The translations under genes and the position numbers were made by a program. The notes below the pieces were generated by a model. That model was not told the DNA's origin. It ran no database searches and saw nothing but the letters and a program-made list of their open reading frames with translations. Positions 25,444-61,867 of a DNA stretch of 64,000 nt are shown piece after piece. How positions within the stretch are numbered: the stretch's first letter is position 1; the number at the start of each line of letters is the position of its first letter. This DNA is from Mesotaenium endlicherianum (Eukaryota): assembly GCA_009602735.1 (NCBI GenBank), contig WELA01000853.1:15947-79946 (forward strand), given 5' to 3'.

Positions 25444-25954
25444 GCTACCACAGTCGATAGTTTAAAGACGGCCGCTCCTATTGAAGGCCTGCTAGTGCAT
25501 AGGACTCATATGTCCAACATCATGATTGAAGCCGCAGGTAAAGACAATAACTTCGGAATAAAAATATATATTGCCACCAGGCCCCTCAAGCAAAGTGTCT
25601 GCAGAATTTGCTTCTGCATTTGGAATATGTGTGAATGCTTTCATCAATTGATGAAACTAATTTAGTGAAGCAAGCCTGCATATATCGAGTGCTATCGAGG
25701 CCCTGTCGTGCTGCTTAATATCGGTGCAAGCCCATTCATTTATGGATCCATTGTTCTGCATTAAGCACCGGCACCACTTCTGGCCCCGTTGACATCATGG
25801 GCCATTATCTAAAGTTGGCACCAGACATGATACCACGTGGATCTAAAACAAAACTCATTGACCTCGAACCTCGATGGCCTGTGATCGACCCTATGTCCGA
25901 CCAAACGTAAACTATCTTGTTGGTAGATCAGCATGTTCAAAGCTATTCAAAAGA

Positions 25955-27011
25955 CAGGTCAGGTGGATAGTTTACGTGAAGAGTGTAGGCAGAATTTGAA
26001 GCGATGCCAGTGGCCACCCCCCAAAAAGGGCACTTTTGTGTGCCTGCCTCTAGGCCACAGTCGGCCAGTGCCCAGACCCCAGCGACCAGTTTCTCACTGC
26101 AGCACACCACAGGACCGTACTTGATCGAATGTCACGGAAATTCATACAATATGCATGTACGAGAGCGCGAGCCATTCACATGTTTGAGCCCAAATTGCCA
26201 TACGATCTATCGCCCACGTGTACGGGACGATCCAGAACAGGATCCAGGCTGATCCAGGCCGATCCAGGCCGCCGGCAGGTTTCGTTCGCGCTGCGCCCGG
26301 ACGGGGACAAACATTGTCAGAGGCAAACCGCTCCCAACATGACACGTGACACGAAAATTCCAAAGAAGTAATCGTGACGCCGTTGACATGCGTTTGCATG
26401 CAAGCGTGTTAAGTTGCTGGCACCGTCGCCGAGGTAACCCGCCAGCTCCCACGGGAGCGCTATATAAGTCGGTGCACCTGGTTGATTCGACAAGCGTGCT
26501 GATAAGCGTGCGTAGACAATGGGCCCACACAAAATCTTGGACGTGCTCATGTGGGGGAGTGAAGATGTATTCCCATACATCTTATGTGTGTATGAAATGG
26601 TGTTTATGCACACATGACGATGTGCATTCATGCATGCGCACTCACTCGCGTATTTGCATGCAAGCATGACGAGTTTGCATATGAGTGTACATATGTCGTG
26701 AAGCTCAGCCTACAGTTGAGCGACGTGTGCATGGTCATTTCGTTGCACATATATGCATGTAAAAAGAGCGTGTGAGAGATTTTTTATGTGAGTGCGTATG
26801 AGGGCGCTTAAATGCATGTCTATGTGAGGGCGCGGACAACATGTACAAGATTGATTGAGCGGACACGCAACCATCCCATGGAAGCCACTATGCATGTACA
26901 AACATGGCAATATGCTCCGCGTTGCAACATTCACCATTTCCATTAGGTTACGTTCCTAGTCATTACTTTGAGAATTCCTTTTAATAAATTACATGTTTCT
27001 GTGAACATGCT
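25955..27011 (+). repeat. Left terminal inverted repeat (near-identical part; diverged extension to ~27225)
   Basis: Reverse complement of 50234-51281. Contains GATCCAGGC subterminal repeats at ~26229-26270. Confidence 0.92.
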
Positions 27012-27362
27012 GAGAAAATGCACAATCTACATTATGCCTTAGCTTGTAAAAATATTAGTTTGATAAGTGAATAGATACTCTTAATTGGTGTATCCCTATT
27101 TTGAGATTCGCCCGTAGAATATCTTTTGGCCGCACACTACAAAATGTAATGTTGTAAAGTCGTACGCCATAAAGCTCGTATAAAGTAATTGTCCTATCTA
27201 TAACCAATTCATAACCAGTTTAGTTCGCTGACACTCACGTATCACGCCAAATTGCGACGTATTATTTTGGTAACCACGTATAACACGCATGGTCTATACG
27301 CACAAATATGTAAGACATATCCGTAAATTACAAACTACAACTAGGAATGTATCGAAAGGACA

Positions 27363-27366
<4 letters not shown>

Positions 27367-27416
<50 letters not shown>

Positions 27417-27417
27417 N

Positions 27418-27453
<36 letters not shown>
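27367..27453 (+). repeat. (CT)n microsatellite; further (CT)n at ~29019-29076 and ~29824-29930 flanking an N gap
   Basis: Direct observation. Confidence 0.95.
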
Positions 27454-27457
<4 letters not shown>

Positions 27458-27524
27458 CATGCACGTCCTTGTTGAGTACCTTTAATGTCTAATAGTAGGA
27501 TAAGAGGGTAGAGAGTCGATGTCA

Positions 27525-27882
27525 GGTCTTAGTGATTAGTTGGGTTAGGGTGGTAGGTGAGGAGGGTCTAGATTGTAGGCAGTGGTGGTGAACACTGGGA
27601 CCCATAGTTTGCTCAGGAGGATCTGCTGTTGAGCAGCTGTGAGGCTCCCCCCGGATCACGCGCTCTTTCTCTACCTCCACACGTGGTGTTGCCGCCCACA
27701 CGTGGTCTTAGTGATCAGTCGGGTTAGAGTGGTTGGTGAGGAGGGTCTAGACTGTGGGCAGTGGTGGTAAACACCGGGACCCATAGTCTGCTCAGGAGGA
27801 TCTGCTGTTGAGCAGCTGTGAGACTCCCCCCAGATCACGCGCTCTTTCTCTACCTCCACACGTGGTGTTGCCGCCCACACGT
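27525..27882 (+). repeat. Tandem duplication, two ~179-bp units
   Basis: Units start GGTCTTAGTGAT at 27525 and 27704, and both end GCCGCCCACACGT. Confidence 0.9.
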
Positions 27883-27960
27883 GTGGGGACGACCCTCAGG
27901 TTCGCTCGCCTGAAGGGTCGACGCGAGTACCCAGTAGGATTCCCTACTGTCCATGGCTAG

Positions 27961-28426
27961 TTTAACGATCAACCACGTGGCCGGTTGCGACGCGTGCGAC
28001 AGGTCGCAGATGCGGCCGGAAGTGCCGGTTTGAATTGTATAAGTACAATTGGCGAGCGATCTAAGTACCTCGAGTTACCTTTTTGTTCGTATCAATGGTA
28101 TCGGAGCGCGAACGTATGCAATTGTTTGCAGGAGACGAAGATTCAAATCCCGCGAGGTGCAAAACTTGTCGATGGTACGACCGTACGGCGATCTTTGGAT
28201 TGTACAAAAAAAAAGGACACTATCCCAAAACAATATCCCTCGCGCCGCCGCGGCATAAGTGCCGGGACGTGCACACTTGTAGGTGGGAGGAGTGTAACAA
28301 TCTGCCCCGTGGCCGGTTGCGGCGCATGCGACACGTTGCGGATGCGGCCGGAAGTGTCGGTTTAGATTGTATAAGTACAGTTGGCGCGCAATCTAAGTAC
28401 CTCGAGGAACCTTTTTGTTCGTATCG
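27961..28426 (+). mobile_element. TRIM (terminal-repeat retrotransposon in miniature), 466 bp
   Basis: 134-bp direct repeats 27961-28094 and 28293-28426 (T(T/G)TAAC...GTATC(A/G)). PBS TGGTATCGGAGC at 28096-28107, PPT AGGTGGGAGGAG at 28281-28292, no coding capacity. TSD is not clean. Confidence 0.85.
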
Positions 28427-29016
28427 CTACAGCGAGACCATTACGTACCATAAGCGATCCCGACGGGTGTGCCCCCGTGTTCGCTACAAGATAGGGAAAG
28501 TAAGAGGTGAGGAGAAGTTGGGTTACCTTTTGACTTGAGTCGTACGTGTCTGTGTTCGTCCTTCGTATTGTACCCTTTTGTAATTAGAGTACACTTTCAT
28601 ATGTGTGTTATGACGCGATGATGCATCTTCCGTAGTAGGTAGTGTTTCCTTTCACTTCGTAGGAGCTAAACATAGTTTGTGAAGGCACGCTCCTTAGGCC
28701 GCAAGCTCACACCATTCTGATGATAGATTTGTATGTTCAATTTCATGAGGGTGAAGATATTCTCTACATTCATGGTGACTTAAAGCTCATATTGTTCGAT
28801 TGTGCCTTCTTGTTTTCCTCGCTTCTAGTGTAGGTGCTCGTAATGCCCGTCATGAATGCACAATAAGTCGAGAATATGCCCTCTCTCTCTCGACCATAAC
28901 ATTGCTAATCGCTCTTGCTTTTTCTCGTTCTTGGTGCTACGTTTTGCTCATTAGTTTACCTTCCCACTTCCTTGCCCTTGCACGATGCCTAGCGCCTGCC
29001 GACAGCCTACGTTGCG

Positions 29017-29080
<64 letters not shown>

Positions 29081-29823
29081 GAGCNNNNNNNNNNNNNNNN
29101 NNNNNNNNNNNNNNNNNNNNNNNNNNNNNNNNNNNNNNNNNNNNNNNNNNNNNNNNNNNNNNNNNNNNNNNNNNNNNNNNNNNNNNNNNNNNNNNNNNNN
29201 NNNNNNNNNNNNNNNNNNNNNNNNNNNNNNNNNNNNNNNNNNNNNNNNNNNNNNNNNNNNNNNNNNNNNNNNNNNNNNNNNNNNNNNNNNNNNNNNNNNN
29301 NNNNNNNNNNNNNNNNNNNNNNNNNNNNNNNNNNNNNNNNNNNNNNNNNNNNNNNNNNNNNNNNNNNNNNNNNNNNNNNNNNNNNNNNNNNNNNNNNNNN
29401 NNNNNNNNNNNNNNNNNNNNNNNNNNNNNNNNNNNNNNNNNNNNNNNNNNNNNNNNNNNNNNNNNNNNNNNNNNNNNNNNNNNNNNNNNNNNNNNNNNNN
29501 NNNNNNNNNNNNNNNNNNNNNNNNNNNNNNNNNNNNNNNNNNNNNNNNNNNNNNNNNNNNNNNNNNNNNNNNNNNNNNNNNNNNNNNNNNNNNNNNNNNN
29601 NNNNNNNNNNNNNNNNNNNNNNNNNNNNNNNNNNNNNNNNNNNNNNNNNNNNNNNNNNNNNNNNNNNNNNNNNNNNNNNNNNNNNNNNNNNNNNNNNNNN
29701 NNNNNNNNNNNNNNNNNNNNNNNNNNNNNNNNNNNNNNNNNNNNNNNNNNNNNNNNNNNNNNNNNNNNNNNNNNNNNNNNNNNNNNNNNNNNNNNNNNNN
29801 NNNNNNNNNNNNNNNNNNNNNNN

Positions 29824-29873
<50 letters not shown>

Positions 29874-30271
29874 TCTCTCCCTCTCTCTCTCCCTCTCTCT
29901 CCTCTCTCTCTCTCTCCCTCTCTCTCTCCTCCTATGAGCTTGCTTAGAAAGAGACGATAATTTCATGTTATTAGTAGGTCAGTGGCGCCGATAGGGAGCA
30001 AAGAGAAGGGAACAATGCAAGAAGTTTGGAACTCGTGACCTTTTGGTGCGAGTCATCGCGACTTCATGTGTTACGCATACAAAAAAAGGGATATAATTGC
30101 GTTCATTACGGTTTCAATTCAAAATTGCGTCTTTTGTCTGACTGAACTGCGCTTGGTCAATGAGATAAAGTAACTTAACAAATTATTACTGAATAAAAGA
30201 TTCTTACTTGCAAGTAATCTTTATAGTGTTTTTGGTTAATTCACTTTACATCAAAAGAACAACACGGCTAG

Positions 30272-32321
30272 TGTAATGAATCAGTGTATTGTTAGATATA
30301 TTAATTTAGTGTATGCAATAGTTAATTAATTTGCTGAATTTTATTAGTATTTAATGTAATGACTTTGTCGAGGACAGCAGGCTATAGTCAACTCAGATTA
30401 GCTTGCTGACACATTCTTTGACAGTCAGCTGACCACTCTGATAAAAGAGCATGAGCCATATTCAAGACTAGGTACATGTCAAGGAGAAGGACCTATGTGA
30501 TCAATAGAGTAGTACCTTAGTTTGGAGTCTAGAAAGTTGTAACTGGTAGCAAGAGTTACCCTTACTAGTCAAAGAGCATGAGCCATAGTCAAAGTTGGGT
30601 AAATTGCATGGTAGAAAGACCTATACAATTGATAGAATAGTATATACAATCAAGGTTCTGCCGTTGGCATGGACGCTTAGATGTAATGTTTGCTATAACG
30701 CAATTGTTTGTCTCCAGGGTTCGGATTTGTTTGTATAGGAATCTAACACGCAAAATCGTTAATTGAAAATGTTAACGTTGAGTTGCCTCGACATTACACC
30801 AAATTGTTGATGATATTTAAGATATACAAAAGCATGCAAATTTGTACTCTTTTGATGTGCGGGTTTATATCACTTGGAGTCGAACAGAGAAATTGTGTTT
30901 GCTTAATTTAGTGAATTGAGCGCTGGTAATGCACGAACAAAGTAACACTATATACCATAGCTTGGAGTCTATGGAAGACGTAACCCATAGATTTTTTTGT
31001 AAGCTTAGAACTAATGAGGTTAGAAGGTGTGCCTAGCTGCGCAAAGACTAGGAAGGAAGAAGGGGTTATTGAGTAATAGAGCTCACTTGGAGCGGTTGGC
31101 CAAACTTAGCAACATGGAGGACGGGTATGTGTCATTTGGTCAATTGGAAGGCTGGTTGATTGGAGCGGAGATTATGCTAGACATTGGAAGTCGCTGTGGG
31201 GAGGGAGGTTCTTTGTTTGCATTTCACAAAGAGAGTGGGCTGAGGGTGGTGGTTACAGCTTGTTGATTCAACCAATTGTAATACTTAATTAGACATACAC
31301 TATCATGATTATTTTCAATTTAGTTGTTAACCTAGCCAAGTGTGACAGGCTCAAGTCTATCTAAGTCATCTTATTGATAAATTCTTTGACAGCCAGCTCA
31401 TCGCCTTAAAACGAACTAGCGGATCGCCTAGCGATGCATCTACGATGAACACTTAATTTCCACCTAAATGGATAGTATTTCACTAATGGTATTTCATTGA
31501 ACATTCAAAAAAGTACAAAGCTTATCACCACAAACAATTTCAAGTTAACTCAATGGTCATACGCTGGTAATAGTCTAATAGAGCATCAATCATGCAATCA
31601 ATAAATTCATAATGAAGCATAAGTTTGTGTTACGTCGTCATCCTCAAACTCTAATGTTCCCTCCGTGGTCTCCACAAAAAGCTGTTTTTGTCACAAATGC
31701 CAAAATCAATAGCAATCCTAGCACACGTTCATGGAATGCATTTCAATGTTCAATGGCAACGCGATAGCATCGCCTAAATAGGATTTAACCATGTCGGTAA
31801 CCTTGAGTGACCAAATTCACACCCATCTCCTCACGCTCCGAGTTGCCATCCGTCTAAGGCGTCATTTGGTCATTCATCTAGCATATCACAATAAATGATG
31901 TTATTAGGTAAGTTGCTTGTTTGGTTTAAGGTCGTCAGCTGGCTGTCAAAAATAAGTGAGCAAACTGACTTAAATAGACTTCAACTTCACACATACATTG
32001 GTCAAGGGTGATACAAAGGCGCACAGAAGGGATATAGATTGGGTGAAGATGGCCCCACTTACGCCCTATGTAACAATGAGCAGCGAGAAACTACGAGATA
32101 AAACTCTTTCTTTGTCAATCGATGGCTCGAACCAAATCCTCGCTGTTGCCTCAATATATTGAATTATTGTAAATTATTATAGCAAATTGAAGCTAATCAA
32201 ATGTTACATTAAAATGAATCGACATATCTAAATATAATGACTCGATCGATAGCAGCAGGCTAAAGTCAACTTAAGTCAGCTTGCTGACACATTCTTTGAC
32301 AGCCAGCTGACCACCTTAAGC
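30272..32321. repeat. Cluster of decayed E2-family LTR fragments in both orientations (~30272-30436, ~31278-31450, ~31480-31985, ~32200-32321)
   Basis: Each carries the GCTGACACATTCTTTGACAGCCAGCTGAC motif or its reverse complement, plus other E2-LTR blocks. Confidence 0.75.
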
Positions 32322-32861
32322 TGTAGTGAAACAGATAGATAAAGTACTTAGTAAAACAGAATACTTTATCTATTCAAGACAAGGATCTTTGAACACAAGT
32401 GGTAGCTTCTCGAAAGAGAGATGGCTTCTTGAAAGTTAATATATTTCTGGATTTTGGCAAGTGCAAGAGTGATTCTGGAATGTCTTTCTATGTTCTAGCT
32501 CTTGTTTATATACTTGCTACATAAGTAATTTCTAGGAAAGTGTATGTTGATGTGTTGGCACCCAACACATCCCAAAACTTGCCACCTCTTTCTAGAATAA
32601 TGTACACATGTCCTTTTGACCTAAAAATGGCACATTTGACTTTTGCCACATGGAGTTCTTCTAGGTCTTTCCTCTAACTTCGAAAATGCCTTGGAAGGTT
32701 CAAAGGACATGAACCAAGTTACTAGAGTACCTATTCACACTTGACTCCACACAATACTACTCCAAATATATTTGAAAACATTAAAATATATGCAAACTAA
32801 TATATAATAACTCAAATCACTACATCACCCCCCCGATAGAAAAAGCGACGTCTCGGCGCGT

Positions 32862-32985
32862 CAAGTCAGGTCTTACACATGTGGAGCAAACTAGTCAACA
32901 GTTTCAAGTCAGATGCCACACATGTGAAGAGGACTAGTCAAAGGCGCCAAGTCAGGTGCTACACATGTAAGGTAGACTAGGCAAG
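32862..32985 (+). repeat. Three ~43-bp tandem units in the E1 3' UTR
   Basis: CAAGTCAG.T...ACACATGT....GACTAG.CAA repeated three times. Confidence 0.75.
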
Positions 32986-33593
32986 GTCGTAGGTGGTGTG
33001 ACCTTATTGGCTAGCCTACTCCTTAATGATAAAGAAAATTGTACAAGTTGGCCCAGAATCTGCCACGAACTCAAAAATTCATAGCGGCCACAGAACTGCT
33101 CCAAATCTGAAAATTCGAGTGCCAGACGGACCGCGTCGGAGAACTCTACCGGGTCACCAAATTTGAGAGCATTCTCATTTCTGGAGTGTCGTTGAGAGCT
33201 GAGAGAGTAGGCACTCCTCCAAATCTGTGCAGAAACTTCTGAAAATCATAAGTCCTTCTATACTTCTCCAAATTCTGCAAACTAAGTCTCAAACTGGGCG
33301 CTGTAAGATGTTCTACCAGAGTCTTGAGTTTCAGAGCATTCCAAGTTCAGGGGAGGGCACAATGTCAGAAGGCATATTCTGCCCTAACAATGCCAGCAGC
33401 CTGACCCCCTTCTACTTAGAGCATCATATCTCTCTCACCAGTGCTCCAAATTGAGCAAACTTGGACTCTAAATGACCGGCTACTCATGGACTACAGCCAG
33501 GTAAATTTTCAGAATTTATTATGCAGAGACCTATTACCAGTAGCAGTTTTAGTTTTCTGTCCAGAAACTGCGAGAAGAGAAGAGTGTCTAATG

Positions 33594-36500
33594 TCAATTT
33601 TTCCTCTTTCTTGTTCTTGCAGGCTGCCTCCAAGGGGTCTTCTGCTGCTTCTTGATGGTGGCAGGCTGCCTCCCTGAAGTCTTCGGGCTTCTAGTAGAGA
33701 GACTTGGGGCTGGTCCAAGATGGGGGTTGGCGGCATGGAAGCGCTTCAACTTTCTCTGAACTTTGTCAAGGTAGTGCGCCGCCACCCAACTATTCTCCGA
33801 ATCTGGATATCCTTTCCACTTGATCAAGTATTGCTGCTGTCTCCTGAAATTTCTCATAGCCACTATGTCTTCCACTTCGTACTCCAAATGATCATCCACT
33901 ATTGTTGGGGCTGGTGGGGTTGTCACACGTCCTGGGAACTTGTTGTCGGGTTGCACATATGGCTTGAAGAGGGAAGCGTGGAATACGGGGTCGATGTGCA
34001 TAGTCTGGGGAAGTTCTAGCTTGAAAGCAACGGGGTTGACTTGCTGGATAATCTTGAAGGGTCCCAAATACTTGGGAGAGAACTTGCTGCCGGCAGGCCT
34101 GTTGTTCAGGGAAATGTTCTTGGATGATAGTAACACGTTGTCACCCACTCTGTACGTAATTTCTCTTCTGGATCTGTTCGCCACTCTTGCTTGAGCATCT
34201 TGCGCGTGTTGTAGAGCTTTCTTCGCTGCTGTAAGGGCTGCTTCTAATGTCTCCATAAAATCTGTGGCTGCAGGTACTTCATCATGGCCAGCCGTGAAGC
34301 TCAGTGGCGTGGTCGGATGGAAGCCATAGTTGAGGAAGAATGGGGACTCTTGGGTAGAGGCCTGCGTAGTGTTGTTGTAGGCAAACTCGAGGGGGGTCAA
34401 GTACATGTCCCAGTCTTGCTCGAGGGTAGACACGTAGGCCTTTAGAGAGGTCTTTAGGGTACGATTCATACGCTCGGTTTGCCCATCTGATTGTGGGTGG
34501 TAGGCAGTAGACATATCCAGCGATGTACCCAAGTTCTTGAAGAGATTTTTCCAGAAATGGCTTGTGAATCTTGGATCTCTATCTGACACAATTCTTGATG
34601 GTAGTCCATGGAGTCGGAAGATGTTGTCAAAGATGAGTCTTGCAAGTTGTGGTGCTGTAGCCTTAGTCGTCGTGGGAATAAAATGAGCCATCTTGGTAAG
34701 TCTGTCCACCACCGTGAGTATTGCATTATGGCCTCGAGGTGTCACGGGCAAGTCCACGATAAGGTCCATTGAGATGTCCGTCCATTGTCTTTCGGGGATT
34801 GGTAGTGGTTGGAGGAGTCCTCCCGCCTTTTGCGATGATGGCTTGATTCTTTGGCATGTGTCACAGCTCCTGCAGTACTCCTTGACTTGCTTAGACATGC
34901 CTGGCCAACAATAAGTCCTAGCTAGAACGCCCGTGGTCCTTAGGATTCCAAAGTGTCCTCCAAGAGGGTTGTCGTGTGCTTCTCGTAGAAGCAAGAGCCG
35001 GAGGTCTATGTCATTAGGAACACATCTCTGGCCCGTATCTTGCCTCACCCAATAATTGCCTTCTTGCTTCTTGCATGGGTCCAAGGCTGCTTCTCCGTTC
35101 TTGTAGTAAGGGTCTCTTTCATAGGCGGCTGAAAATCGAGCTTCCAGATCTGTCTTCAGGGATACCATCACTGCATTTAATTGCAGTCTTGAGAGGGGGT
35201 CAGCCGGGTTTGTCTTGCCGGGCTGGTACTGAATCGTGATGTTGTATTGTTGCAAGTATCCGCTCCATCTTGCTTGTCTCCTTGAGAGATACGGCTGCGT
35301 TTGGAGGTGCTTTAACGCCTCGTGGTCCGTGGTGACCAGTACTTTGCGTCCTTCAACGTAGCAGCGCCAAACCTTCAAGGCATGTACAATCGCCAATGCC
35401 TCTCGCTCCGTGGTTGTATAATTTTGCTCGGCTGGATTTAGCTTCCTTGACTCGTAGGCGATGGGCTGCAGTCCCTTGCCTTGGTCTTGAAGCAGGATTG
35501 CTCCTATTGCATAGGAAGATGCATCGGTGATGACGTGGAAGGGCCAATCTGGGTTTGGACTTGGGAGTGTGAGCACCGGGGATGTGGTCAATCTTCGCTT
35601 TAACTCTTGAAATGCCTCTTCCTCTTTCTCGGTCCATGTATATAGCCTGTCCTTCTTGAGTAGATCTGTCAGGGGGGCTGCTATGTGCGAGAAGCCTTGG
35701 ATGAATTTTCTGTACCAATTGGCAAATCCCAAGAATGACTGGAGTTCTTTCTTGGTCGTGGGGGTTGGCCATTCCTCCACCACCGTGGTCTTCTTGGGGT
35801 CCATCTTGATGCCATCAGCAGTCACGTGGAGACCTAGGAACTCCACTTCTTGTTTGGCAAACTCGCACTTTGACTCCTTCGCAAATAGCTTGTTTTGCTT
35901 CAATACTTCAAGGACTTCTTTCAAGTGTCTCGCATGCTCTTCAAGGGTCTTGCTGTAGATAAGGATGTCATCGATGAATACCACCACAAATCTGTCCAAC
36001 ATGGGCTGAAATATGGTGTTCATCATAGTCATGAAAGTTGCTGGCGCGTTGGTGAGTCCAAATGGCAGGACCATGAACTCAAAATGTCCATATCTTGTCC
36101 TGAATGCCGTCTTCTCTATGTCCGGTTCTGCGATGCGAATCTGGTGGTAGCCGCTCCGTAAGTCAATCTTCGTGAAGTACTTGGCTCCAACCAGCCGGTC
36201 CATGAGCTCATCCATGCGCGGCAGCGGGTATCGATTCTTGATGGTGATCTTGTTGAGGGCGCGATAGTCCACACACATCCTCAAGGTACCATCTTTCTTC
36301 TTGACAAATAGCACCGGGGCTCCAAATGGCGACTTGCTAGGTCGAATGAAGCCATGCTCCAGTAGCTCCTTGATTTGCTTCTTGACTTCGTCTAGCTCCG
36401 TGTATGACATTTTGAACGTAGGCCGAGAGATGGGCTTGCTTCCGGGCTCCAACTCTATCTTGTGGTCTACGAATCTTTTGGGGGGTAGGCCCTTGGGCAA

Positions 36501-37202
36501 TTCCGGGGAGAACACTTCTTTGTAGTCCTCTAAGACTTCTTGTATCTCCTTGGGAACGGGGCTGCCTTCTTGACTCTCGATGTCTTTCTTGATGTCTTTT
36601 GGCGTGATCAAGGCCAAAAGAAGCTCGTGTCCCTTCCTCACAAGTCTCTTGAGTTGGAGGGCGGACAATAGTATCTCGTGTGCCGGCTTCTGGATGTCTT
36701 GGGTCTGGATATTCTGGATTGCGCGCAAAATACAGATTCTTGAAGTGATGTCATTCTTGATCTTGATAGTACCGGTCCTCCAATCAACTTGGGGGTTGTG
36801 CTTGGTCAACCAAGGCGTCCCTAGGATGACGTCGTACTTGCCCAATTGCATGGGGGAGAACACTACTCTATCCTTGAAGGACTTGATAGAGAGTGCCAAG
36901 GGGTACGTCTTCTTGGAAGGGGTAGTATAGGAGAATCCATCGGGCATCATAATCTCCTCGTCGTGGTCAAGAGTTCGCATAGTAATACCGTGCTTGGTGG
37001 CAAAATCTGCAGCAATGAAGTTGCCTTGAGCTCCGCTATCCACCAAGATGTGGACCTTCTCTCCTCCAAGGTAACCTCTCAAACTCATTGGGGCTGGAAC
37101 GTCGTCTTCAACGGGGGTCTCCACCTCACTTGGCGTGTTGCCTTCTCGTGAAGTGGGTCTTGGGGTGGTAGGCTCCTGGCCTACCGGCGCTGTCCGTTTT
37201 TT
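33594..37202 (-). CDS. pol: E1 Pol (PR-RT-RNaseH-IN-chromodomain), translated by -1 frameshift from gag
   Basis: [28 protein letters not shown] zinc finger, [26 protein letters not shown]...YLIKWKGY...NSW. Confidence 0.96.
37167..37202 (-). promoter_or_regulatory. E1 -1 ribosomal frameshift signal
   Basis: Slippery A AAA AAC (37202-37196) in the gag frame, followed 10 nt later by hairpin GGTAGGC-CAGGA-GCCTACC. The -1 frame is the pol ORF. Confidence 0.8.
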
Positions 37203-40117: not shown

Positions 40118-41794
40118 TTAAGGGGTTGTTCCTGGGGCTTCAGGATCAGGAGACGGAGATCTGGACCTAGATCTGGACAGCCCTCTAGGTCTGTCAGCTG
40201 GCCTTCTAAAGAACCCTGTTTGCTCTAAAGTTGGCCCTCGAGGAGAACGGAGGATGGTGGCCTGCTCTTCAACCACTTGGGTGTTGATTCCCACATAGAC
40301 AGGCATTCCAGTAGGATGCTGAAATACATTGGCTAGAGGTACATGCCCCTGAGCGGAGGGGGAGGCTGGCATACCTCTGGCCCACCCGCGTGTCCCTCTT
40401 CTGGCACCCCTGTCCTCTGGGGATTTCTGTCTGTGTCTGCTGCCCAGTACAGTCAGATCAGCTTCTTCCCCTGCTTGGGCAGGTGGGCTGGGGGAGCGAG
40501 CGCGGGGTCCAGTTGTCGCCATAACGGGGATCACATTCCACACACCTGATCGTGGTTCTTTAGGAAGTGCCACTGCCTGTCCCTGGGTATCCTGAGTACC
40601 TGCTGCTGATGCTTCTCCTCTGCCTTGTTCTTCTTCCTCATCCTCCTCATCCTCCTCCTCGGAGAGAGTAGGGGTCTCGTCCACTAAGTCGTCCTGCTCC
40701 CTAGTAGACATGGAGTAGTCTACCGACCTCCCTTTCTTAGGGCGCGCTGGAGGTTGCTTGGCCTTCAGCCTACTGATATCTATCCGGCCTGCATTCTTTG
40801 CCCATTTGACAAAGGCATGCTTTCCCTTAGAGAAGTACTCTCTTCCCCTCCTCCTATGTTCCTTGGTCTCTGCATTCATATTGCTCAGGCATCCATTCAG
40901 CCTGGGGTCCCAAGGGGCAATGTGAGGTGGTAGGATGAGATAGCCGTCTAGGCCATAGTGGAAGTCATCCGGTTGGGCTCGGTCACACTCCTGCTTCTTA
41001 TTTGTGACGGTCATCCACCTCCAGTCTGTTGGCTGCTGGTAGTACTGGGGTCCGTGCTCAGCCTTCCTCAGTTTACACGGGAACCAGTGGGGAGAGAACA
41101 TCTGCTGTCCTGCTTCCCTGGCCAAGTACTCCCAGCTCCTTCTCTCAACTTCATTGTAAGCTGGCAGGAGTGTGAGGTAGAATACCGTATCCTTAAAGCT
41201 ATCGGGCCGCATGCTCACCATCCGGATGAGTCTCTGATCTCCCACTATTCCCGGTATGGGGACCGGCTTGTCCTCTGAATCATCTGCGAGATACCGGGCC
41301 TGCTCTGCTGTATAGCCCACCATCTTAGCATAATCTTCGTAAAGGACCACGCCGGTGTGTGTCTCGATGTACCTGTCCAGTGCTGTAGCTCCTTCCTTCT
41401 GTAGCAGTGTTGTCTGTTCCAGCCTGTTGATCTCCTGGGCTGCCAGCAATGCTTCCTTCAGGTTATCGAAGTTTTGGCCACCCACCACAGTATACCTGTA
41501 AGTGGCCAAGCTCTTCTGTCTGTCCGCTTCAATCTTTTTTCTTTTCTCCTCTTCTGCCGCTGCCGCTTCTTCTTGCTGTTTCTTCTGTCTCTCCTCCTCA
41601 GCCTTCCTGAGGTTTTCCGCTTCCTGATCCTTCTTCCTCTGTGCCTCTTCTGCCGCCTCTTGTTGTTTGCGGACCCTTTCTTGTTCTCTCCTGGTGAGGG
41701 ACGTCGCCGCCAGCTCCTTCTGGTATTGCTCCATTGTCCTCCTGGCTTCTTCTGCCTTGCGCTTTCTGTCCTCCTTTTGTGTGGTGGGCGCCAT
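40118..41794 (-). CDS. E2 ORF3: accessory protein of unknown function (~558 aa from ATG 41794)
   Basis: Intact ORF inside the element in sense orientation. N-terminal E/K/Q/R coiled coil, central aromatic-rich globular domain, acidic and SR-rich tail. Homologous to the E3 ORF3 remnants. Confidence 0.88.
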   Translation of the reverse strand: MAPTTQKEDRKRKAEEARRTMEQYQKELAATSLTRREQERVRKQQEAAEEAQRKKDQEAENLRKAEEERQKKQQEEAAAAEEEKRKKIEADRQKSLATYRYTVVGGQNFDNLKEALLAAQEINRLEQTTLLQKEGATALDRYIETHTGVVLYEDYAKMVGYTAEQARYLADDSEDKPVPIPGIVGDQRLIRMVSMRPDSFKDTVFYLTLLPAYNEVERRSWEYLAREAGQQMFSPHWFPCKLRKAEHGPQYYQQPTDWRWMTVTNKKQECDRAQPDDFHYGLDGYLILPPHIAPWDPRLNGCLSNMNAETKEHRRRGREYFSKGKHAFVKWAKNAGRIDISRLKAKQPPARPKKGRSVDYSMSTREQDDLVDETPTLSEEEDEEDEEEEQGRGEASAAGTQDTQGQAVALPKEPRSGVWNVIPVMATTGPRARSPSPPAQAGEEADLTVLGSRHRQKSPEDRGARRGTRGWARGMPASPSAQGHVPLANVFQHPTGMPVYVGINTQVVEEQATILRSPRGPTLEQTGFFRRPADRPRGLSRSRSRSPSPDPEAPGTTP

Positions 41795-42061
41795 CCTGCA
41801 CATGTAACCAGGGCACAAGTTAGTAGGATATGGACCTTTGTCATAGGGATTGCAGGAAGTATGTTAGTATTTAGTATAGTGGCTTCGCTGCTGTTTACCT
41901 TACAGGATGATTGCTAAAAGTTGACGTAGTTGCGATGCGCTACACATAAACGTATGAGTGTGTTTTTATCGCTCTCGCTCACTAACTGTCATATATTTTC
42001 CCCTCCAACTTAAATGGAGACAGGACCGCCTGTCACCTTCCCGTGTCAACTGAAATGACAG

Positions 42062-45000
42062 TTATGGAGGGACTCCAGCGGCCCGAAGGTGGAACCGTGT
42101 CAACGCCCCTTTGGCATTGGTCAAGTGGTCCTTAAACTCCCAAGTGTCCCCAGAGGCATCGTAACCCTTCCATCGAATGAGGTATTTCATGACATATTTA
42201 GACGATCGACGGACCGAGCGAGCGTCTAAAATCTCATCGACCTCATATTCCTCAGGGTCGCCGTCCCGGACAGCGGGGACCGGTCCCGGTTGGACAGGGA
42301 ACCGACCTGTGAACAGTGTATCACCTTTGATGTACGGTTCCAGGAAGGAGACATTAAAGACCGGGTGCCCCTTGTATTCAGCTGACATGTTCAGTTTGTA
42401 AGCATTCTGACCGACACGACGGACCACCGAATATGGACCGACCCAGACAGGGCCAAGCTTTTTCTTGACCACACCAGGGAGGTACAGGTGCTGAGAATGC
42501 AGTTTGACTAAATCCCCCTTGGAAAATGTCAGTTCCCGACGGTGTTGATTAGCGTATTTTTGTTGGTTTTCTTGGGCCGTGTGCAAGTTTCGTTGGACTT
42601 CTGACAGGGTGTCAGCAAACTCCTGAGTTAACTGGAGGGAGACCGGGTTGTCAATCCCTTCAGGGTGAGTTAAAGATTCCCCTAGCACATCTAGAGGAGA
42701 CTTAGGGACTCTACCCAGGCTGAGTTCAAAAGGAGTTTTGCCCGTTGACGCGTGCACCGCACTGTTGACCGCAAACTGAATTTGAGGCAACAGGTCATCC
42801 CAATTATCTTGTTTTTGGTTAATATATGCTCTCAGCACCTCCTGCAGAACTCGGTTAGTTCTTTCAGTCTGCCCATCAGTCTGAGGGTGGTTTGCTGTGC
42901 TGAGCAGCTGTTTGACTCCCATTAACCCCATTAAAGCTCTCCAGAACTTAGAGGTGAATTTTGAGTCTCTGTCTGAGATGATATTAGAAGGGAGCCCATG
43001 TTGGCATACTACATGGTTGTAAAACTGTCTCGCTGTTTCGAGTGCAGTCACTTTGACAGTTGTGGGGATAAAAATGACCATTTTTGTCAGTTTATCCACG
43101 ACTACCAGTATTGAATCATGCCCGTTGGCAGTTCTTGGTAGTGAGACCACCCAGTCCATGGATATAGTTTCCCAGCGTCCCGCTGGGATGGGTAGCGGTT
43201 GCAAGAGACCTCCGGGTGGTGTGTGCCGAGACTTATTTCTCTGACACTGGTCACAGGACTTGACATATTTCAAGACCTCCCGGGGTAACCCCTCCCAATG
43301 ATAATGTTTTGCCAGTTTGCCAACAGTTTTGGCCTGCCCCAAATGTCCACCCAGGAGACTGTCATGAGCTTGACTCAGTAAGAGAGACCTTATTTCCAAG
43401 TTATTAGGAATGACCAGCTTCAGCCTGCCTGAAGTGGTTTCAGTCACCCAGACCCCTCCCTTGAGCTTATACCCGAGTGCAGTAGCACGACACACACCAG
43501 TAGTGGGGCTGGGCTCAAATGTTGGGTCAGAAAGGTAGGCTTTCCTAAGTTGTTCAAGGAAGGACTTTTTCACCTTTAGTGAAGTGAGTGCACACAGGAC
43601 TTTATCTACAGCATGCTGACTAAAGTTCCTTTCTTGCAAGTCAGGTCTTCTAGAGAGTGCATCAGCAGGATTCAACTTCCCTGGTTTGTAGTCGATCTGG
43701 ACTTGGAACTGCTCCAGCATCTGGCTCCAGCGGTTCTCCCTCCTCGACAGCTTGGACTTCTTCTGAAAGTGGGTCAGAGCTAGATGATCTGTAATCACCT
43801 TAAAAGCTTTACCATGTAAGTATGCTCTCCACTGTTTGAGTACATGAATGATAGCTAGCAGCTCTTTATCATGCACTGAGTAATTAATCTCCGCTGGATT
43901 AAATTTCATAGACTCATACAACACAGGATGCCACTCCTGCCGTACCTTACCATCCTTTGTGGTTTTGTCAGCAGGCTGCAACAAAATAGCACCCATGGCA
44001 AAATCAGAGGCATCAGTAACCACCTGCACCGGTTTGCTGGGGTCATACACGGCTAGCACTGGGGCAGAACAAAGGGCATCTTTAAGGGTCTGGAAGGCAG
44101 CCTGCTGCTCTTCCCCCCACACATACCCGATGTCTTTCTTAGTAAGGTCAGTCAGTTTACTGGCCTTTGTGGAATAATTCTCAATAAATCTCCTATAGTA
44201 GTTAGCCAACCCGAGGAAGGATCTAACTTCAGAGACAGACTGTGGTACTGGCCAGTCCCTTATGGTCTGGACTTTCTTAGGATCCACACTGATGCCCTCT
44301 TTACTGACAACGTGGCCTAAGAATTCAATACTTTCCTTAAAGAAATCACACTTGCTCATTTTAGCATACAAGTGATTTTTCCGCAGAGTGTCCAGCACTT
44401 TCTTTAAGTGTTCAGTGTGCTGAGCTTCATCTTTAGAGAAAATTAAAATATCATCCAGGAAAACTTGCACAAACTTATCCAAATAAGGTCTGAAAATGTC
44501 ATTCATAGCACCCATAAAGGTAGCAGGAGCATTAGTCAGTCCAAATGGCATCACGTTGAACTCATAGTGTCCATAACGTGTGCGGAAAGCAGTCTTGTGT
44601 TCATCCCCCTCAGCAATTCTGATTTGATGATAACCACTCTTGAGATCTATCTTACTGAACACCTTAGCGCCAGACAGGGTATCAAGCAAGTCCTCGATTC
44701 TGGGTAAAGCATACTTGTTCTTTACTGTAATTCTGTTCAGGGCTCTGTAATCCACACACATCCGCATACTGCCATCCTTTTTCTTAACAAATAGGATAGG
44801 TGCGCCGTACGGTGATTTACTGGGAGAAATGTAACCATTTTCCTCCAGCTCTGCAATCTGTGTTTTCAACTCCTCGCTCTCCAAATAAGACAAGCCATAA
44901 GTGCGTTGCCAGGGTGGCTGGCTACCAGGTAATAGATCAATCCTATGATCTACTTCCCTTTTAGGGGGTAGTCCTGGAGGCATGTTAAACACATCAGTGT

Positions 45001-45871
45001 ACTGAGCAACAATTTTTGCAGCAGTAGGGTGCTCCGGAGGGCTTACCTTTTTCTCAACCACTTCTTCAGGTTGAGGAGGTACCTCTCTTAGCAGCAGACA
45101 GAACATTCTGTCTTCCTTCTGGTTCCAGCTTTTGACGAACTCCATTGCATTCAGCAACTTGCATCCTTCTGGAAGCCTCTTCTTTTCCTTCATTTGCCAT
45201 CCACACAGGACAAGAGGAAGAGCACTGGTGGGTGCCAAGTCAGTCTGCCCATCACTGGCTCCTCTCACTTTAACTGTACCTCTGCTCCAACACACTTCAG
45301 CTTGATGTCTATTAAGCCAGGACCTGCCTAGCACGAGATCATAAAAGCCAGTGTTGAGTACCTCAAATGTAAGCGTTTCAGTTAGAACTGCAATGCCAGA
45401 ACCTAACTGGACCTCAATAGGCTTGGTTATAACTCCTCCCGGGATACTTGAGGCATCTCCAAGGAATATTTTTCTATTCCCTTGGGTGACAGTAGGCAGC
45501 CTTAGCCGCTTAACTAAGTCCTTGTGGATAAAAGTATGTGACGCCCCTCCGTCAACAAATGCCCTCACCTTCCTACCTGCAATCATGCAATGCAGTAGGA
45601 TAGGGGGGACTGTCTTTTCCTGACTTTCGCATTGTTCTCCTGACGTAGCAAAGAAATGTTGGACATCAGGTGGAACAAGAGCATCCAGAGTGTGCACTCT
45701 CTGGACGTCTATATTACTGATGGTCTCCTTTATCTGTTTGTCAGGCATGCATAGTGAATCCAGTTCAGCAGGACCCATAATACCTGCTACGAGGGCAGCT
45801 AGTGACGACTCACTATCTCTAGCATCCTCACAGTCAGTAGACTGGATTACTGACTGTTGCTGTCTTTTAAA
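42062..45871 (-). CDS. pol: E2 Pol (PR-RT-RH-IN-chromodomain), via -1 frameshift
   Basis: [54 protein letters not shown]...YLIRWKGY...DTW. The frame is open up to the slippery site. Confidence 0.96.
45830..45871 (-). promoter_or_regulatory. E2 -1 frameshift signal
   Basis: T TTA AAA (45871-45865), a 7-nt spacer, then a perfect 10-bp stem ACAGTCAGTA/TACTGACTGT (45857-45830). The -1 frame reads [10 protein letters not shown]...GIMGPAEL into pol. Confidence 0.85.
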
Positions 45872-47325
45872 GGCTGGTCTTTTCTCTCGACCTTAGGCAG
45901 GTGCTTGACCGGACACTGTTCTCTGTAGTGGCCTTTCTGCTGACAATGGTAGCAAGTAGATTTTGCTGAGGCTGGTCTCGGCTTAGTCCTACCACCACCC
46001 CTTCCATAGCCACCTCGAGAGGGACCACCTCTACCTCTAGACTGAATAGCATTGTACTCATACTCATATTCATCACCCTGATTATCCTCAGCCTGGTCTC
46101 CTTCAACTGCATTGTAGGAACCGTGGGGCTTTTTGACAATCTTAGACACCAAAGCGTTACTCTGGCGCTTGTGATTGAACTGCTGCTGATCCCAGGCGTC
46201 AGCATCCTGGATCAAGTCAGCCAGTTTCTCATACTTTTTCTCAGCAAAATGACCAGAGACCTCGGATTTCAAGCCATACCTGAAGTATGCTATCCTATAC
46301 CGTTCTGGCAAATCAGGCTGCTTCATCATGTTCTCTTGGAACTTTTGAGCAAACTCAGCAACTGAAGTGGTCTGCTTCAGTGTCAGGGAGATCATCGCAT
46401 AGATAGCTTTCTCCTGCTGGTTGATGACATCAAACTTCTCATGCAACTTCTCGACAAACTCTACCCACGTAGGGTCACCGAGTTGCCGAGCCTTACGCTC
46501 TTCCTTCCAGTAAAGCCACCAGTCTGCGGCACTGCCTTTCAGTAGCGCACCGGTGTGCCTGACCTTCTCGTAATCTTGCAGTTCTGGGTAGTTCTCCAGC
46601 CACTGCTCAACATCCGCGAGAAACTTGATCAGGTAATATTTTCTGTTTCCCTCAGGATCATAGTCCTGGGGAGGTTTCGGCTTGGGCTTACTAGGCCCTC
46701 GGCCACCACCACTAGTGGTGTGAGACCCCAGTTGGTCTCTGTCCCGGAGTAGGGACATTATGATTCTTTTGTCCTCCTGCTGGGACTGATACATGGTCGC
46801 CATTTGCGACTGCATCTGAACGAACAATGCTCCCAAGTCTACATTTTGGGGTGGTAGATTAGCAAATGCAGCAGCAGCATTGGCATCTACTCGCTGAGTA
46901 GTGTCCTCAACAATCCCTCTTGCTCCTGCAGCAGCAATTCCTGCCGCATTCAGCCGGTCACGTATTTGACCTAGGGGTACATTGAGTTGTACGGCAGGAG
47001 GTGGGTTCAGAACATTGGCCCTTGATGCCATAAGTTCTTCAACAGTGCGCTCGTCAGCTGGCTGTCCTTCCCTCCTTTGTATATCTTCAGCGGCCTTTGC
47101 TACTTGTTCAGCTTCTAGTCTGGCTATCTCCTCCTCAGCTTGCTGAGCTGCGACTGAGGCAATAGCAGCTGCCTCATCTGCAGCCTCCCTAGCTGCAGTA
47201 TCCGCTACTGCTTCCGAATAGGTACGGTTTCCCGCTACATGGCTTTCCGCCTGGTTTTCGACATTCTCGTTATCCTGGTTCTCCATGTCTCGGGAGTTGC
47301 TAGTTTGAGACCTTGTCCTTACCAT
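45847..47325 (-). CDS. gag: E2 Gag
   Basis: MVRTRSQ start, [23 protein letters not shown]-rich stretch and [14 protein letters not shown] knuckle. Confidence 0.95.
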
Positions 47326-48104
47326 ACAAAGAAGACTGTGATAACTGCTCCGATACCACTGAAATGAATCGACTTACCAAATAGGCGATTAACAATTAAT
47401 AAAGATCTTTATATCAGCAAGTAATCTTTATGGTATTTCCGTTAACTAGTTAAACGGCAAAGGACAATACACTAGCAGGGAATAATACTCGTAAGTCAAA
47501 TGCGAGTAAACTAGCATCAATAATGCAAATCAGTAAACTCATACATAAGCAAGGTTAGAAGACAGTGCGTATCAATGGCTTCTCGCCTTGGATTCAGATC
47601 TCTCTCAGTAAGCTGTACAAGAGAGTTGGCCTCGTTTCCGAATGCCGAACTCGAGAGCAATGCCTAGCATATGTACATGGAATGAGTTTACTGTTCAACG
47701 GTCAGTGCGATGGCACCGCCTACCCGGGAGTTAACCACGTTGGTAGGACCTCGGTTAACCAAATCCACCGCCATCTCCCATCATCCCGAATAGCCATCCA
47801 TCATGGGGATGTCATCTGGCCATTCCTCTAGCAGGTGGTACTTAGATGCATATCAAGGCAGTTCGCTGCTACCGAGCACGGAAGTCAGCTGGCTGTCAAA
47901 GAATGTGTCAGCAAGCTGACTTAAGTTGACTTCAGCCTGCTGCTTTTGGCCGAGTCATTAAACTGATAATTATGTAAAGTCCAGCAGACTGATTATTAAC
48001 TAAAGTTCAGCAGGCTGACTACTAACTAAAGTTCAGCAGGCTGAACTAAATTAACTATTATATTTAAATGAATATTATATCTACTAATATACTGATTCAT
48101 TACA

Positions 48105-49008
48105 ATTAATCATACAATCAATAAACTCATACATAAACAAGGTTAGTAAGTAGTTCGTGCAACGGCTTGCAGACTTATATTCAAATATTGTCTCAATAGT
48201 ATGTACAAAGAGTTGGCCTTCTTTTCGAATACCAAATTCCGTATTAATACCTAGCATATGTACATGGAAAGAGTTATACTGTTCATCGGGTAGTGCGATG
48301 GCACTGCCTACCTGGGAGTTAACTACGTCGGCAAGACCATGGCTAACCAAGTCCACAGCCATCTCCCATTATTCCAAATTGCCATCCGCCTAAGGCGTCA
48401 TTAGGCCATTCATCTAGCATATTACACTTAGATGCATCATTAGACGGTTCGCTAGTATCGCTTGAAAGTTGAGGTGATCAGCTGAGTGTCAAAGAATGCG
48501 TCAGCAAGCAGATCTAAGTTGACTTCAGCTAACTGTCTTTAGCAGAGTCATCACACTAAATAAAAGTTTAAGTCCAGCAGACTGAGTATTAACCGAAGTT
48601 TAGCAAATTGGACTTAATTAAGTACTGCATTTAATTGAATCATTATATCTAACAATTTACAAATAAATTACAGGAAGTAATGCTCACAAGTCAAATGCTA
48701 GTAGGGAGCATCATTCATGCAATCACTATACTCATTCATACAAGAGGCTAATAAACTATTCTTGTAACGGCTTGCAGCCTTGGATTTTGATATTCCCTCA
48801 GCAGTTTGTACAGAGAGTTGGCCTTGTTTTTAAACGCCAAACACAATAGCAATCTTAGCATATGTACATGGAAAGAGTTCTACTGTTCAACGGCAATTAC
48901 GATGGCACCGTTTGGAGTTAATAAGGTTGGTAAGACCTTGGCTAATCAAATTTACAGCCATCTCCCATCATCTCAAATCGCCATCCGCCTAAGGCATCAT
49001 CTGGCCTA
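48105..49008 (-). repeat. Decayed E2-family LTR remnants (one continues from ~39145-39285 across the E2 insertion; a second partial copy follows at ~48673-49008)
   Basis: Collinear similarity to the E2 LTR (AGCATATGTACATGGAA, GCCATCTCCCAT, TGTCAAAGAATG). Confidence 0.8.
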
Positions 49009-50233
49009 GCGAGCACGCGCGATCGTCACAAAGCCTGCATGTAGGCTGAGTGACGCAGTATAATTTAAGGAATGCAGTGGCACCAACGAGGAAGAGCATG
49101 CATGCATGCGAGTATGACGAAGTCAACGGCAATCTCGAAAGGGGCTAGCTTGCGTGGTGCCTGTGATAGGCATCAGCCACGCACACTCTACCCTCATTCT
49201 ACTCACATTTTTCTGCCAGGTCCAAGAAGACAAAGGTAAGAAGGAGAGAGAGAAGACAGAAGAAGAAAAAAGGCGCAAAGAAGAATAGAAGGAACTCCTA
49301 AGAAGGCAAGACGACAAGTTTTCGTCTACGTTGAAGATTCCTGCTTATGTCTCACACTTTGTAGCTAAGAAAAGTTAGGACTCATGAGTTCCCAAAAAGG
49401 GATTTTCACTTGAAAGATTTAAAAAGCTTGCAGATAGGATGTGCTAGGAAATCATAGCACAGTTGAACCAACCACCACAAGCGTGTGAAGAGCACATAAA
49501 ATGGTGAGTGCTGTGTTAGTGTCCAAGTTCTCAGAAGTCTCAATTGCCGGATTGATGGAAGCAAGAGCAGAGTTAGCAAGACTAGAACTCTCAGTGGAGA
49601 ACTGAGTGAGCTCAGCCAGCAGTGAAGAATCGTTAGGTGCGACTTTGAGGGGAAGACTCAAGCCAACCCAGAATACATGCTATAATTTTTTATTTTTGTA
49701 AGCTGTGAGTCTGTGACTGTGAAAATTAAGCGTAAATCCTGGTGGGCAAATTCTTTGAAACTAAGTGCTAACTCTCTCACTGACTGATGCTAGTGCAGGA
49801 TGACCAAAAATTGGTCAGCCACAGGCAACCTGCCATCGACACACGTGCGAAGGTCAAACGACAAGGTAGATCCCACACATGCAAGAATACATCGACCAGT
49901 CGACCAAGCAGTGCATACACGCGTGAAGAGCCACCGACATATCGACCACACGTCCGCAAAATCATCACACGTGCCCTGACCTCAATACGGCTAGGCACGA
50001 CATGATGTAAACTGTTTATGAACCCAGTATGAGTAGGGCAATCAATTTATACGTAATTTATGTCGTACGATTGTTCGGCGTATCACAATTCGTACTGTGC
50101 GGCTAAAAGATATTGTACGAGCAAATTTCAAAATTAGACTTACTTCAATTGTGAGTATCTATTTACTTATAAAACTAATGTTCTACAAGCTAAGACATAA
50201 TGTAGATTATGCATTTTCTGAATATAATTACTA

Positions 50234-51281
50234 AGCATGTTCACAGAAACATGTAATTTATTAAAAGGAATTCTCAAAGTAATGACTAGAAACGTAACCT
50301 AATGGAAATGGTGAACGTTGCAACGCGGAGCATATTGCCATGTTTGTACATGCATAGTGGCTTCCATGGGATGGTTGCGTGTCCGCTCAATCAATCTTGT
50401 ACATGTTGTCCGCGCCCTCACATAGACACGCATTTAAGCGCCCTCATACGCACTCACATAAAAAATCTCACACGCTCTTTGTACATGCATATATGTGCAA
50501 CGAAATGACCATGCACACGTCGCTCAACTGTAGGCTGAGCTTCACGACATATGTACACTCATATGCAAACTCGTCATGCTTGCATGCAAATACGCGAGTG
50601 AGTGCGCATGCATGAATGCACATCGTCATGTGTGCATAAACACCATTTCATACGCACATAAGATGTATGGGAATACATCTTCACTCCCCCACATGAGCAC
50701 GTCCAAGATTTTGTGTGGGCCCATTGTCTACGCACGCTTATCAGCACGCTTGTCGAATCAACCAGGTGCACCGACTTATATAGCGCTCCCGTGGGAGCTG
50801 GCGGGTTACCTCGGCGACGGTGCCAGCAACTTAACACGCTTGCATGCAAACGCATGTCAACGGCGTCACGATTACTTCTTTGGAATTTTCGTGTCACGTG
50901 TCATGTTGGGAGCGGTTTGCCTCTGACAATGTTTGTCCCCGTCCGGGCGCAGCGCGAACGAAACCTGCCGGCGGCCTGGATCGGCCTGGATCAGCCTGGA
51001 TCCTGTTCTGGATCGTCCCGTACACGTGGGCGATAGATCGTATGGCAATTTGGGCTCAAACATGTGAATGGCTCGCGCTCTCGTACATGCATATTGTATG
51101 AATTTCCGTGACATTCGATCAAGTACGGTCCTGTGGTGTGCTGCAGTGAGAAACTGGTCGCTGGGGTCTGGGCACTGGCCGACTGTGGCCTAGAGGCAGG
51201 CACACAAAAGTGCCCTTTTTGGGGGGTGGCATCGCTTCAAATTCTGCCTACACTCTTCACGTAAACTATCCACCTGACCTG
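50234..51281 (-). repeat. Right terminal inverted repeat (diverged extension inward to ~50010)
   Basis: Reverse complement of 25955-27011, with a few substitutions and small indels. Confidence 0.92.
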
Positions 51282-51465
51282 CAAAAGAGGTTCAATCAAA
51301 GCTGGTTCGTTCAAAAAATTTGCGCCGTTTGAGAACTAAGAGGGCGCCCCATATAGAATTCCTTAAGAGCCCCCTTGCACGCCTTTTCCGCGTAGCACAA
51401 TAGGAAGGATTGCATGCTCCCTAGGAGTTTGTCTTTGTGGTACTTACGAAGGGCAAATGCCACGA

Positions 51466-55877: not shown

Positions 55878-56235
55878 CCTGCTCAATCGTAAACTTAATG
55901 CAGTCAGTGGAGTCATGATACTTTGCCGCTACTAAGTGTCCGTAGTTAAGAAGAACGTGATAGGGAGAGTCCTTAATGTGTAGTACCTTGTGTAAGTGAG
56001 TATAAGAGAGAATTGAGTTAGAGAGAAAAAGTGAGTATGAGCGCAGGTTGAGTGTGTAGAGTGGTTATAAAAATTTCCCTGGCTGATCCCGAAACGGAAC
56101 ACACTCCCTCCAACTTAATTGTAAGGTGGGCTGTTTGTCAAGACTGTCACTATCTATCACTAATCGTCACATTGCCCTCCGACTTATATGGAGACAGGAC
56201 CTCCTGTCACCTGTCCATGGCCACTGAAATGACAG

Positions 56236-60036: not shown

Positions 60037-60042
60037 TTTTAA

Positions 60043-60740: not shown

Positions 60741-60772
<32 letters not shown>

Positions 60773-61780: not shown

Positions 61781-61867
61781 TGCCTCCACAAAGCTACTGA
61801 TTAGAATGAAGTGAAATTTGTTTCATATGATAGGTAAGACACATGCCTACCCCAAATTAAATCAACA

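Follow-up and report, generated by a model that had tools for sequence, protein, structure and literature searches.

Galileo elements, members of the P superfamily in Drosophila, occur as transposase-less copies consisting of two terminal inverted repeats (TIRs) of up to about 1.25 kb, flanked by 7-bp target-site duplications (TSDs) (PMC4168063, PMC3573991, PMC3698922). Their TIRs contain internal repeats, and other transposable elements are nested in them (PMC3573991, PMC4168063). Two families of Kyakuja elements (KDZ) from the fungus Laccaria likewise combine a 7-bp TSD with CA..TG termini (PMC12730594). An element that resembles both systems in these features was located at positions 25955-51281 (25,327 bp) of a 64,000-nucleotide stretch of Mesotaenium endlicherianum contig WELA01000853.1 (positions 15,947 to 79,946), hereafter the window. 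The host is a zygnematophyte, that is, a streptophyte alga. We conclude that the element probably belongs to a multi-copy family of cut-and-paste DNA transposons with long TIRs, as a non-autonomous copy enlarged by successive insertions of long terminal repeat (LTR) retrotransposons, and below compare it with the described systems.

The ends of the element and its target site comprise the following features:

25948..25954, plus strand: left TSD, CAAAAGA (sequence comparison)
25955..27009, plus strand: left arm, outer and apparently homogenised part, with the CAG terminus and 7 extra nucleotides (26006-26012) relative to the right arm
26241..26271, plus strand: three GATCCAGGC repeats, about 290 bp from the end, mirrored at 50972-51002
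27013..27222, plus strand: left inner arm extension, about 81% like the right one (alignment)
50008..50219, minus strand: right inner arm extension (alignment, contigs)
50235..51281, minus strand: right arm, outer and apparently homogenised part (alignment, contigs)
51282..51288, plus strand: right TSD, CAAAAGA (sequence comparison)

The element opens with CAG at 25955 and closes with CTG ending at 51281, and its outermost 51 bases are the same in both arms. Alignment of the outer arms (25955-27009 with 51281-50235) identified five substitutions in 1046 aligned bases and three indels (7 nucleotides, 2 nucleotides and one edge gap). Beyond a 13-nucleotide indel near 27010 the inverted match extends for another 210 bp or so (27013-27222 with 50219-50008) at roughly 81% identity, with 40 substitutions in 208 bases. 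The complete inverted repeat is thus about 1.27 kb long, with a sharp drop in identity near 27010 (5/1046 versus 40/208, p=1e-27). Each arm carries three exact copies of GATCCAGGC, at arm offsets 287, 297 and 307, which are candidate transposase-binding sites; folding of the first 376 bases of the arm was no better than that of shuffled sequences (z 0.72). The direct duplication CAAAAGA matches exactly at length 7 alone among the lengths 4-12 tried, and an exact 7-mer is expected by chance with a probability of 7-9e-5 from the local composition. The original prediction, made from the sequence alone, had proposed CAG...CTG ends, near-identical TIRs of about 1.05 kb, a perfect 7-bp TSD and subterminal repeats, and each of these was recovered here.

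Contigs of the public sequencing runs X1 and X4 (DNA), X5, X6 and X9 were placed on the window and compared on the left side up to 28000 and on the right side from 49001. In X1 and X4 the left flank is a single contig without differences, at depths of 61 and 71. Depth in these runs climbs to about 1600-1750 at the left terminus, and the DNA contigs of the left outer arm reach 365-2078 per bin, as against 61-71 on the flank. The right flank is spanned by a contig of depth 57 without differences (51256-51527), such that depth steps from 57-71 to hundreds or thousands at both termini, and the DNA contig depth of the arms exceeds that of the flanks roughly 10-30-fold. Single X4 arm contigs have depths of 466-788, about 7-12 times that of the flank. 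Three other flanks meet the terminus in loose contig ends of X5 and X9, two of them at 25955 and one at 25957 with an altered second base, and a two-contig loose end in X6 is an exact mix of the left flank of the element and the flank seen in X5. On the basis of the depth steps and the three other flanks at a shared terminus, the arms belong to a multi-copy family. The left-type inner extension is also found on contigs of depth 168-173, and is thus present in other copies, and overlapping contigs of depth 264 and 186 that cover 49919-50223 carry the right inner extension. Both types lie on contigs 2-5 times deeper than the single-copy flank, indicating that left and right ends differ within the family. 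These depths, the shared termini and the zygnematophyte host agree with the proposal that the element is non-autonomous and belongs to a long-TIR family of a plant-lineage genome. A search with the 24-nucleotide terminus gave no matches in metagenome, genome or viral contigs, and the arm had no plasmid match. At the locus of another copy, a deep contig (1487 nucleotides at depth 210 in X5; 583 nucleotides at depth 120 in X6) stops 33-46 letters inside the terminus, as seen at window positions 25955-26000 and 51249-51281; the TIR end of that copy may hold the start or the end of a host transcript.

Membership of the arms in a dispersed family is also what would be expected if they were two independent insertions of a 1-kb repeat, with the 7-bp match arising by chance or as the trace of an inversion. 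We regard this as highly improbable: the chance of such a 7-mer is about 1e-4, neither a further terminus nor a TSD is present at the inner ends, the duplication lies outside the arms in direct orientation, as an insertion yields, and each arm resembles the other more than it does the family majority. Elsewhere in the window the terminal 12 letters do not recur, even when one mismatch is allowed, indicating an element without inner termini.

Between the arms lie the following features:

27366..29928, no strand assigned: CT microsatellite with a high-copy repeat (about 27455-29018; 179-bp tandem at 27525-27883) and a gap of N
30161..32321, no strand assigned: nest of truncated older LTR fragments akin to the gypsy 2 LTR, 66-76% identity, both orientations
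32322..39001, minus strand: gypsy 1, chromovirus-type (gag 37181-38470, pol 33594-37286)
39286..48104, minus strand: gypsy 2, chromovirus-type (gag 45847-47373, pol 42062-45892, extra frame 40118-41863)
48110..49006, plus strand: older LTR remains, ending abruptly at 49006
49007..50007, no strand assigned: non-coding multi-copy stretch, depth 669-2295 with a peak of 43400 at 49501-49600

Both gypsy elements have open gag and protease-reverse transcriptase-RNase H-integrase-chromodomain frames. The LTRs of gypsy 1 differ at 5 of 504 positions (0.99%), its TSD is TAAGC/TAAGT (four of five letters matching), and it sits in an inverted older LTR. Those of gypsy 2 differ at 10 of 721 positions (1.39%) with a fully matching TSD (ATTAA, 5/5), and this element sits in an older solo LTR (39145-39285 plus 48110-48672, 74%). 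The interior had been described as transposable-element debris plus two intact gypsy elements, which the open gag and pol frames, paired LTRs and 5-bp TSDs confirm. Together the two young gypsies account for 15.5 of the 25.3 kb (61% of the length), and the 25-kb size is therefore mostly nested gypsies. With both subtracted, 9,818 bp are left, consisting of the arms, the LTR fragments, the CT-tract repeat, the N gap and the kilobase at 49007-50007; within this remainder the gypsy 2 LTR gives nine alignments at 66-76% identity. The 49007-50007 stretch may be either family interior or a separate repeat. A short, very-high-copy motif occurs at 49470-49550, where the summed depth is 43400 compared with about 60 for single-copy sequence. 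Depth over the CT and high-copy repeat region reaches 6106 (for the part up to 28000). The assembly gap of 739 N at 29085-29823 lies between two CT tracts ending in the same 10 letters, and is probably a false overlap gap. Related gypsy LTRs are nested in each other repeatedly (30161-32321, 39007-39285 and 48110-49006), which suggests self-targeting by chromodomain integrases. The extra frame of gypsy 2 (40118-41863, minus strand) comprises 581 codons downstream of pol and has a 66% related stretch in a third gypsy at 54874-55238; it has neither a Pfam family above cut-off nor a usable Atlas match.

Among 62 interior reading frames, none passed a Pfam cut-off and none had a transposase-family match at E<=0.1, in agreement with the expectation that the element has no transposase open reading frame. 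Rfam gave no matches across the element. No host-gene cargo was found inside the element, where the interior frames considered for this had no Pfam match. The statement that the element carries cargo is accordingly to be revised: with no host gene or transposase found among the interior frames, the "cargo" is retroelement DNA, 61% of the element being two young gypsies within older LTRs.

The letters shared by the arms bear on their history. At 11 listed positions both arms differ alike from the majority contigs of X4, compared with five substitutions between the arms. Taken over four X4 records, 606 left-arm letters show nine differences from the majority and one from the right arm (Fisher p=0.02). 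Since both arms share these minority letters, copying from one arm to the other must have taken place at some time, which points to concerted evolution of the arms.

The preferred reading, a long-TIR transposon copy enlarged by LTR elements, would proceed as follows. A DDE-type transposase made at another locus would have paired the two CAG ends, perhaps by binding the GATCCAGGC repeats, and a 7-nucleotide staggered cut would have led to insertion 0.5 kb upstream of an algal gene. The element may have been at most about 9.8 kb long at insertion, and LTR elements would then have accumulated inside it, the two intact gypsies last. In keeping with this reading, both gypsies carry TSDs of their own, and each splits an older LTR. 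Copying between the arms, by gene conversion or by repair templated on the other arm, would have kept their outer 1.05 kb alike, and the inner 0.2 kb would have escaped such copying and drifted to 81%; the identity step near 27010 would mark the reach of the copying tracts.

Several observations weigh against this account. The 7-bp TSD is measured at one site, the three other flanks are unpaired with each other, and no empty site was seen. The DNA contigs enter the arms by 28 and 26 letters only, less than the 31 letters of the bridging rule, and X1 and X4 may be the sample behind the assembly. Summed depths yield very roughly 15-25 arms, summed contig depth not being the same as copy number. 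The X5 contig bridging the left junction (25552-26215) has five other letters and six gaps, and a neighbouring X5 contig (26173-26650) has 20 other letters and four gaps. This X5 path may be chimeric. Alternatively, the assembly may have partly collapsed the left arm, which would weaken the homogenisation argument and leave the element itself unaffected. Finally, the arms diverge slightly less (5/1046, 0.48%) than the nested LTR pairs do (15/1225, p=0.07).

The X5 contigs could be explained if a short-read assembler had filled both arms from the same reads, in which case the true arms would be 2-5% apart and the element would still be real. The scaffold does have N gaps, one of them inside the element, and the X5 path from flank to arm is a divergent variant, though the gene-body contig has 0/959 other letters. 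A k-mer contig can, however, pass from one copy to another where the sequence is identical, from the junction up to the first variant. The assembled arms also differ from each other at five sites and three indels, and they carry minority letters, whereas a collapse would tend toward the majority path. An assembly product of this kind therefore seems rather improbable.

Arm divergence no higher than that of the nested LTRs is also compatible with recent transposition of the entire unit, in which two family ends captured an existing LTR nest, or a bloated element jumped again, and 10-25 kb moved in one step, possibly with both gypsies. The arms (0.48%) and the TSD (7/7) look no older than the gypsies (0.99% and 1.39%), the old LTR at 48662-49006 ends where the right multi-copy stretch starts, and amphioxus offers a precedent of transposon arms with a gene and a nested transposable element between their sites (PMC12905397). 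The age difference is not significant (p=0.07), however, and would be erased by conversion between the arms. The left and right inner ends represent distinct family types rather than a single small element in duplicate, inner termini were not found, and no second copy of the interior appeared among the contigs compared up to 28000 and from 49001. Nothing in the data shows movement of the 25-kb unit as a whole, and we consider such an event unlikely.

Assignment of the element to a superfamily is less clear. The original prediction took a 7-bp TSD with CA..TG ends as the mark of Galileo and the P superfamily. This combination is not exclusive, being the same in Kyakuja, and hAT7 also has a 7-bp TSD (PMC12730594); "Galileo/P-like" is therefore a resemblance only. 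TIR length is itself regarded as unreliable for classification in the Galileo paper (PMC3573991). Galileo arms are 98-100% identical within one copy, its TIRs are extended by recombination, and other transposable elements are inserted in 17% of copies (PMC3573991, PMC4168063). Inter-arm conversion or repair has also been proposed for Galileo (PMC3573991). The Galileo target is GTANTAC within a 15-bp palindrome, compared with CAAAAGA here, where 4 of 15 mirrored pairs agree and all of the inner five are mismatched; this palindrome holds for Galileo proper and not for every P element. Two-TIR Galileo copies average 1.7-2.2 kb in the accounts cited, versus 25.3 kb here (9.8 kb without the gypsies). 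The hosts also differ, Drosophila versus a streptophyte alga, and the present copy has no transposase to compare.

Kyakuja resembles the element in size, with consensus lengths of 15-25 kb among the rows compared against 25.3 kb for the element (PMC12730594). One Kyakuja family begins with CAGGGCAG, versus CAGGTCAG in the element, and 3 of these first 11 letters differ (PMC12730594). Unlike the element, the two Laccaria families are without TIRs, and the GGGCCC-rich ends of most of the Kyakuja rows compared are absent from it (PMC12730594). No KDZ domain was detected in the interior frames of the element. Kyakuja does occur in a green alga, Chlamydomonas (PMC8226300, PMC9940879), and KDZ elements of Cryptococcus have TIRs of 139-241 bp and TSDs of 4-8 bp (10.1101/2025.05.19.654958). 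Under the Repbase rule, which allows at most one mismatch to a known family in the first 11 letters (PMC4455052), the terminus fits none of the fungal starts compared, and the sole CAGG entry among them has three mismatches (PMC12730594 supplement).

Elements of the hAT and Plavaka groups have been reported from the zygnematophyte Spirogyra (PMC13519894), and hAT7, which clusters with plant Ac and Tam3, shares with the element a 7-bp TSD and starts of CAG or CAA (PMC12730594). The five hAT7 starts compared, CA(G/A)CG(G/A)TGGGC, differ from the element at more than 1 of 11 letters, and no hAT7 entry among them begins with CAGG. Kilobase TIRs are unusual in hAT elements. Mutator-like elements (MULEs) and Foldback elements, of the Pack-MULE type, have long TIRs around non-coding or foreign DNA, and usually have TSDs of 8-11 bp and ends starting with G. 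The likeness to MULEs and Pack-MULEs lies in the long TIRs; the TSD of 7 at the measured site falls outside the 8-11 bp range, and no Pfam match among the interior frames points to a captured host gene fragment as in Pack-MULEs. A P/Galileo-like origin is the leading candidate, and a tentative one. KDZ/Kyakuja is possible with less confidence, a hAT element with a 7-bp TSD and a MULE are equally doubtful, and any other superfamily is more doubtful still.

No prior description of this TIR family was found in the literature searched; the host genome paper, its supplements and Repbase lay outside that search. The family is real, unclassified and probably undescribed, with long TIRs and a host that is a close algal relative of land plants. 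A broader proposal, which we put forward as speculative, is that it represents a Galileo-like or TIR-bearing Kyakuja lineage undescribed in streptophytes, recently active, with homogenisation of the arms within a copy, moving units of 10-25 kb including whole retrotransposons, and with ends that feed transcripts into host genes. A screen of 1007 green-lineage genomes identified recently active autonomous TIR elements in seven of the 17 superfamilies screened, with P and Zisupton not among the seven (PMC12973397). If the partner proves to be a P-type or Kyakuja transposase, a superfamily missing from that active set would extend to the algae nearest land plants (PMC12973397). Without a partner, the element counts as non-autonomous and unclassified, and Drosophila offers well-known examples of its kind. 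The step in arm identity from 99.5% to 81% is a clean place to study how long TIRs homogenise and extend.

To the left of the element lies a single host gene:

23019..25443, minus strand: At4g14100-like host gene with three exons, outside the element (protein identity, X5/X9 splice)

Its start codon is at 25443, about 0.5 kb from the left terminus, and its protein is 100% identical to P0001 (source label jgi/Mesen1), with At4g14100-like plant proteins as further relatives. An N-terminal extension of about 200 residues (24616-25443, minus strand) is unmatched in the 39 other matches, which cover 16-28% of the query. The left-flank frame had been considered as an interrupted transposase; this was ruled out, as no longer proteins were found and the frame proved to be the host gene. 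The empty site reconstructed in silico has no long open frame over the junction. Contigs of X5 and X9 skip the first intron of the gene exactly, and these runs thus appear to behave like RNA. Spliced-type X5 contigs (25552-26650) link the arm interior to the 5' end of the gene at a depth of 9.65-13, compared with 56, hinting at read-out transcription from the left arm into the At4g14100-like gene; the contig letters are those of a divergent arm variant, and the path may be chimeric. No RNA dataset was listed as containing the arm. Raw RNA reads on 49001-52000 numbered 1 and 5, from about 6% and 13% of two runs, and are uninformative on expression.

To the right of the element is the third gypsy, a decayed member of the gypsy 2 family (52909-62741, minus strand), whose LTRs differ at 35 of 719 positions and whose TSD is ATAAG. 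Its gag region (60043-61868) is replaced by unrelated DNA. A C-terminal fragment of a piggyBac-like transposase lies within it (60826-61452, plus strand; zf-Tnp_2, E 5e-4, below cut-off), and is the only sign of a DNA transposon outside the element among the frames scanned (74 of 120 frames of at least 85 codons plus several more, with low-complexity and overlapping frames excluded). The same decayed gypsy contains an inverted LTR of the gypsy 1 family at 54005-54511.

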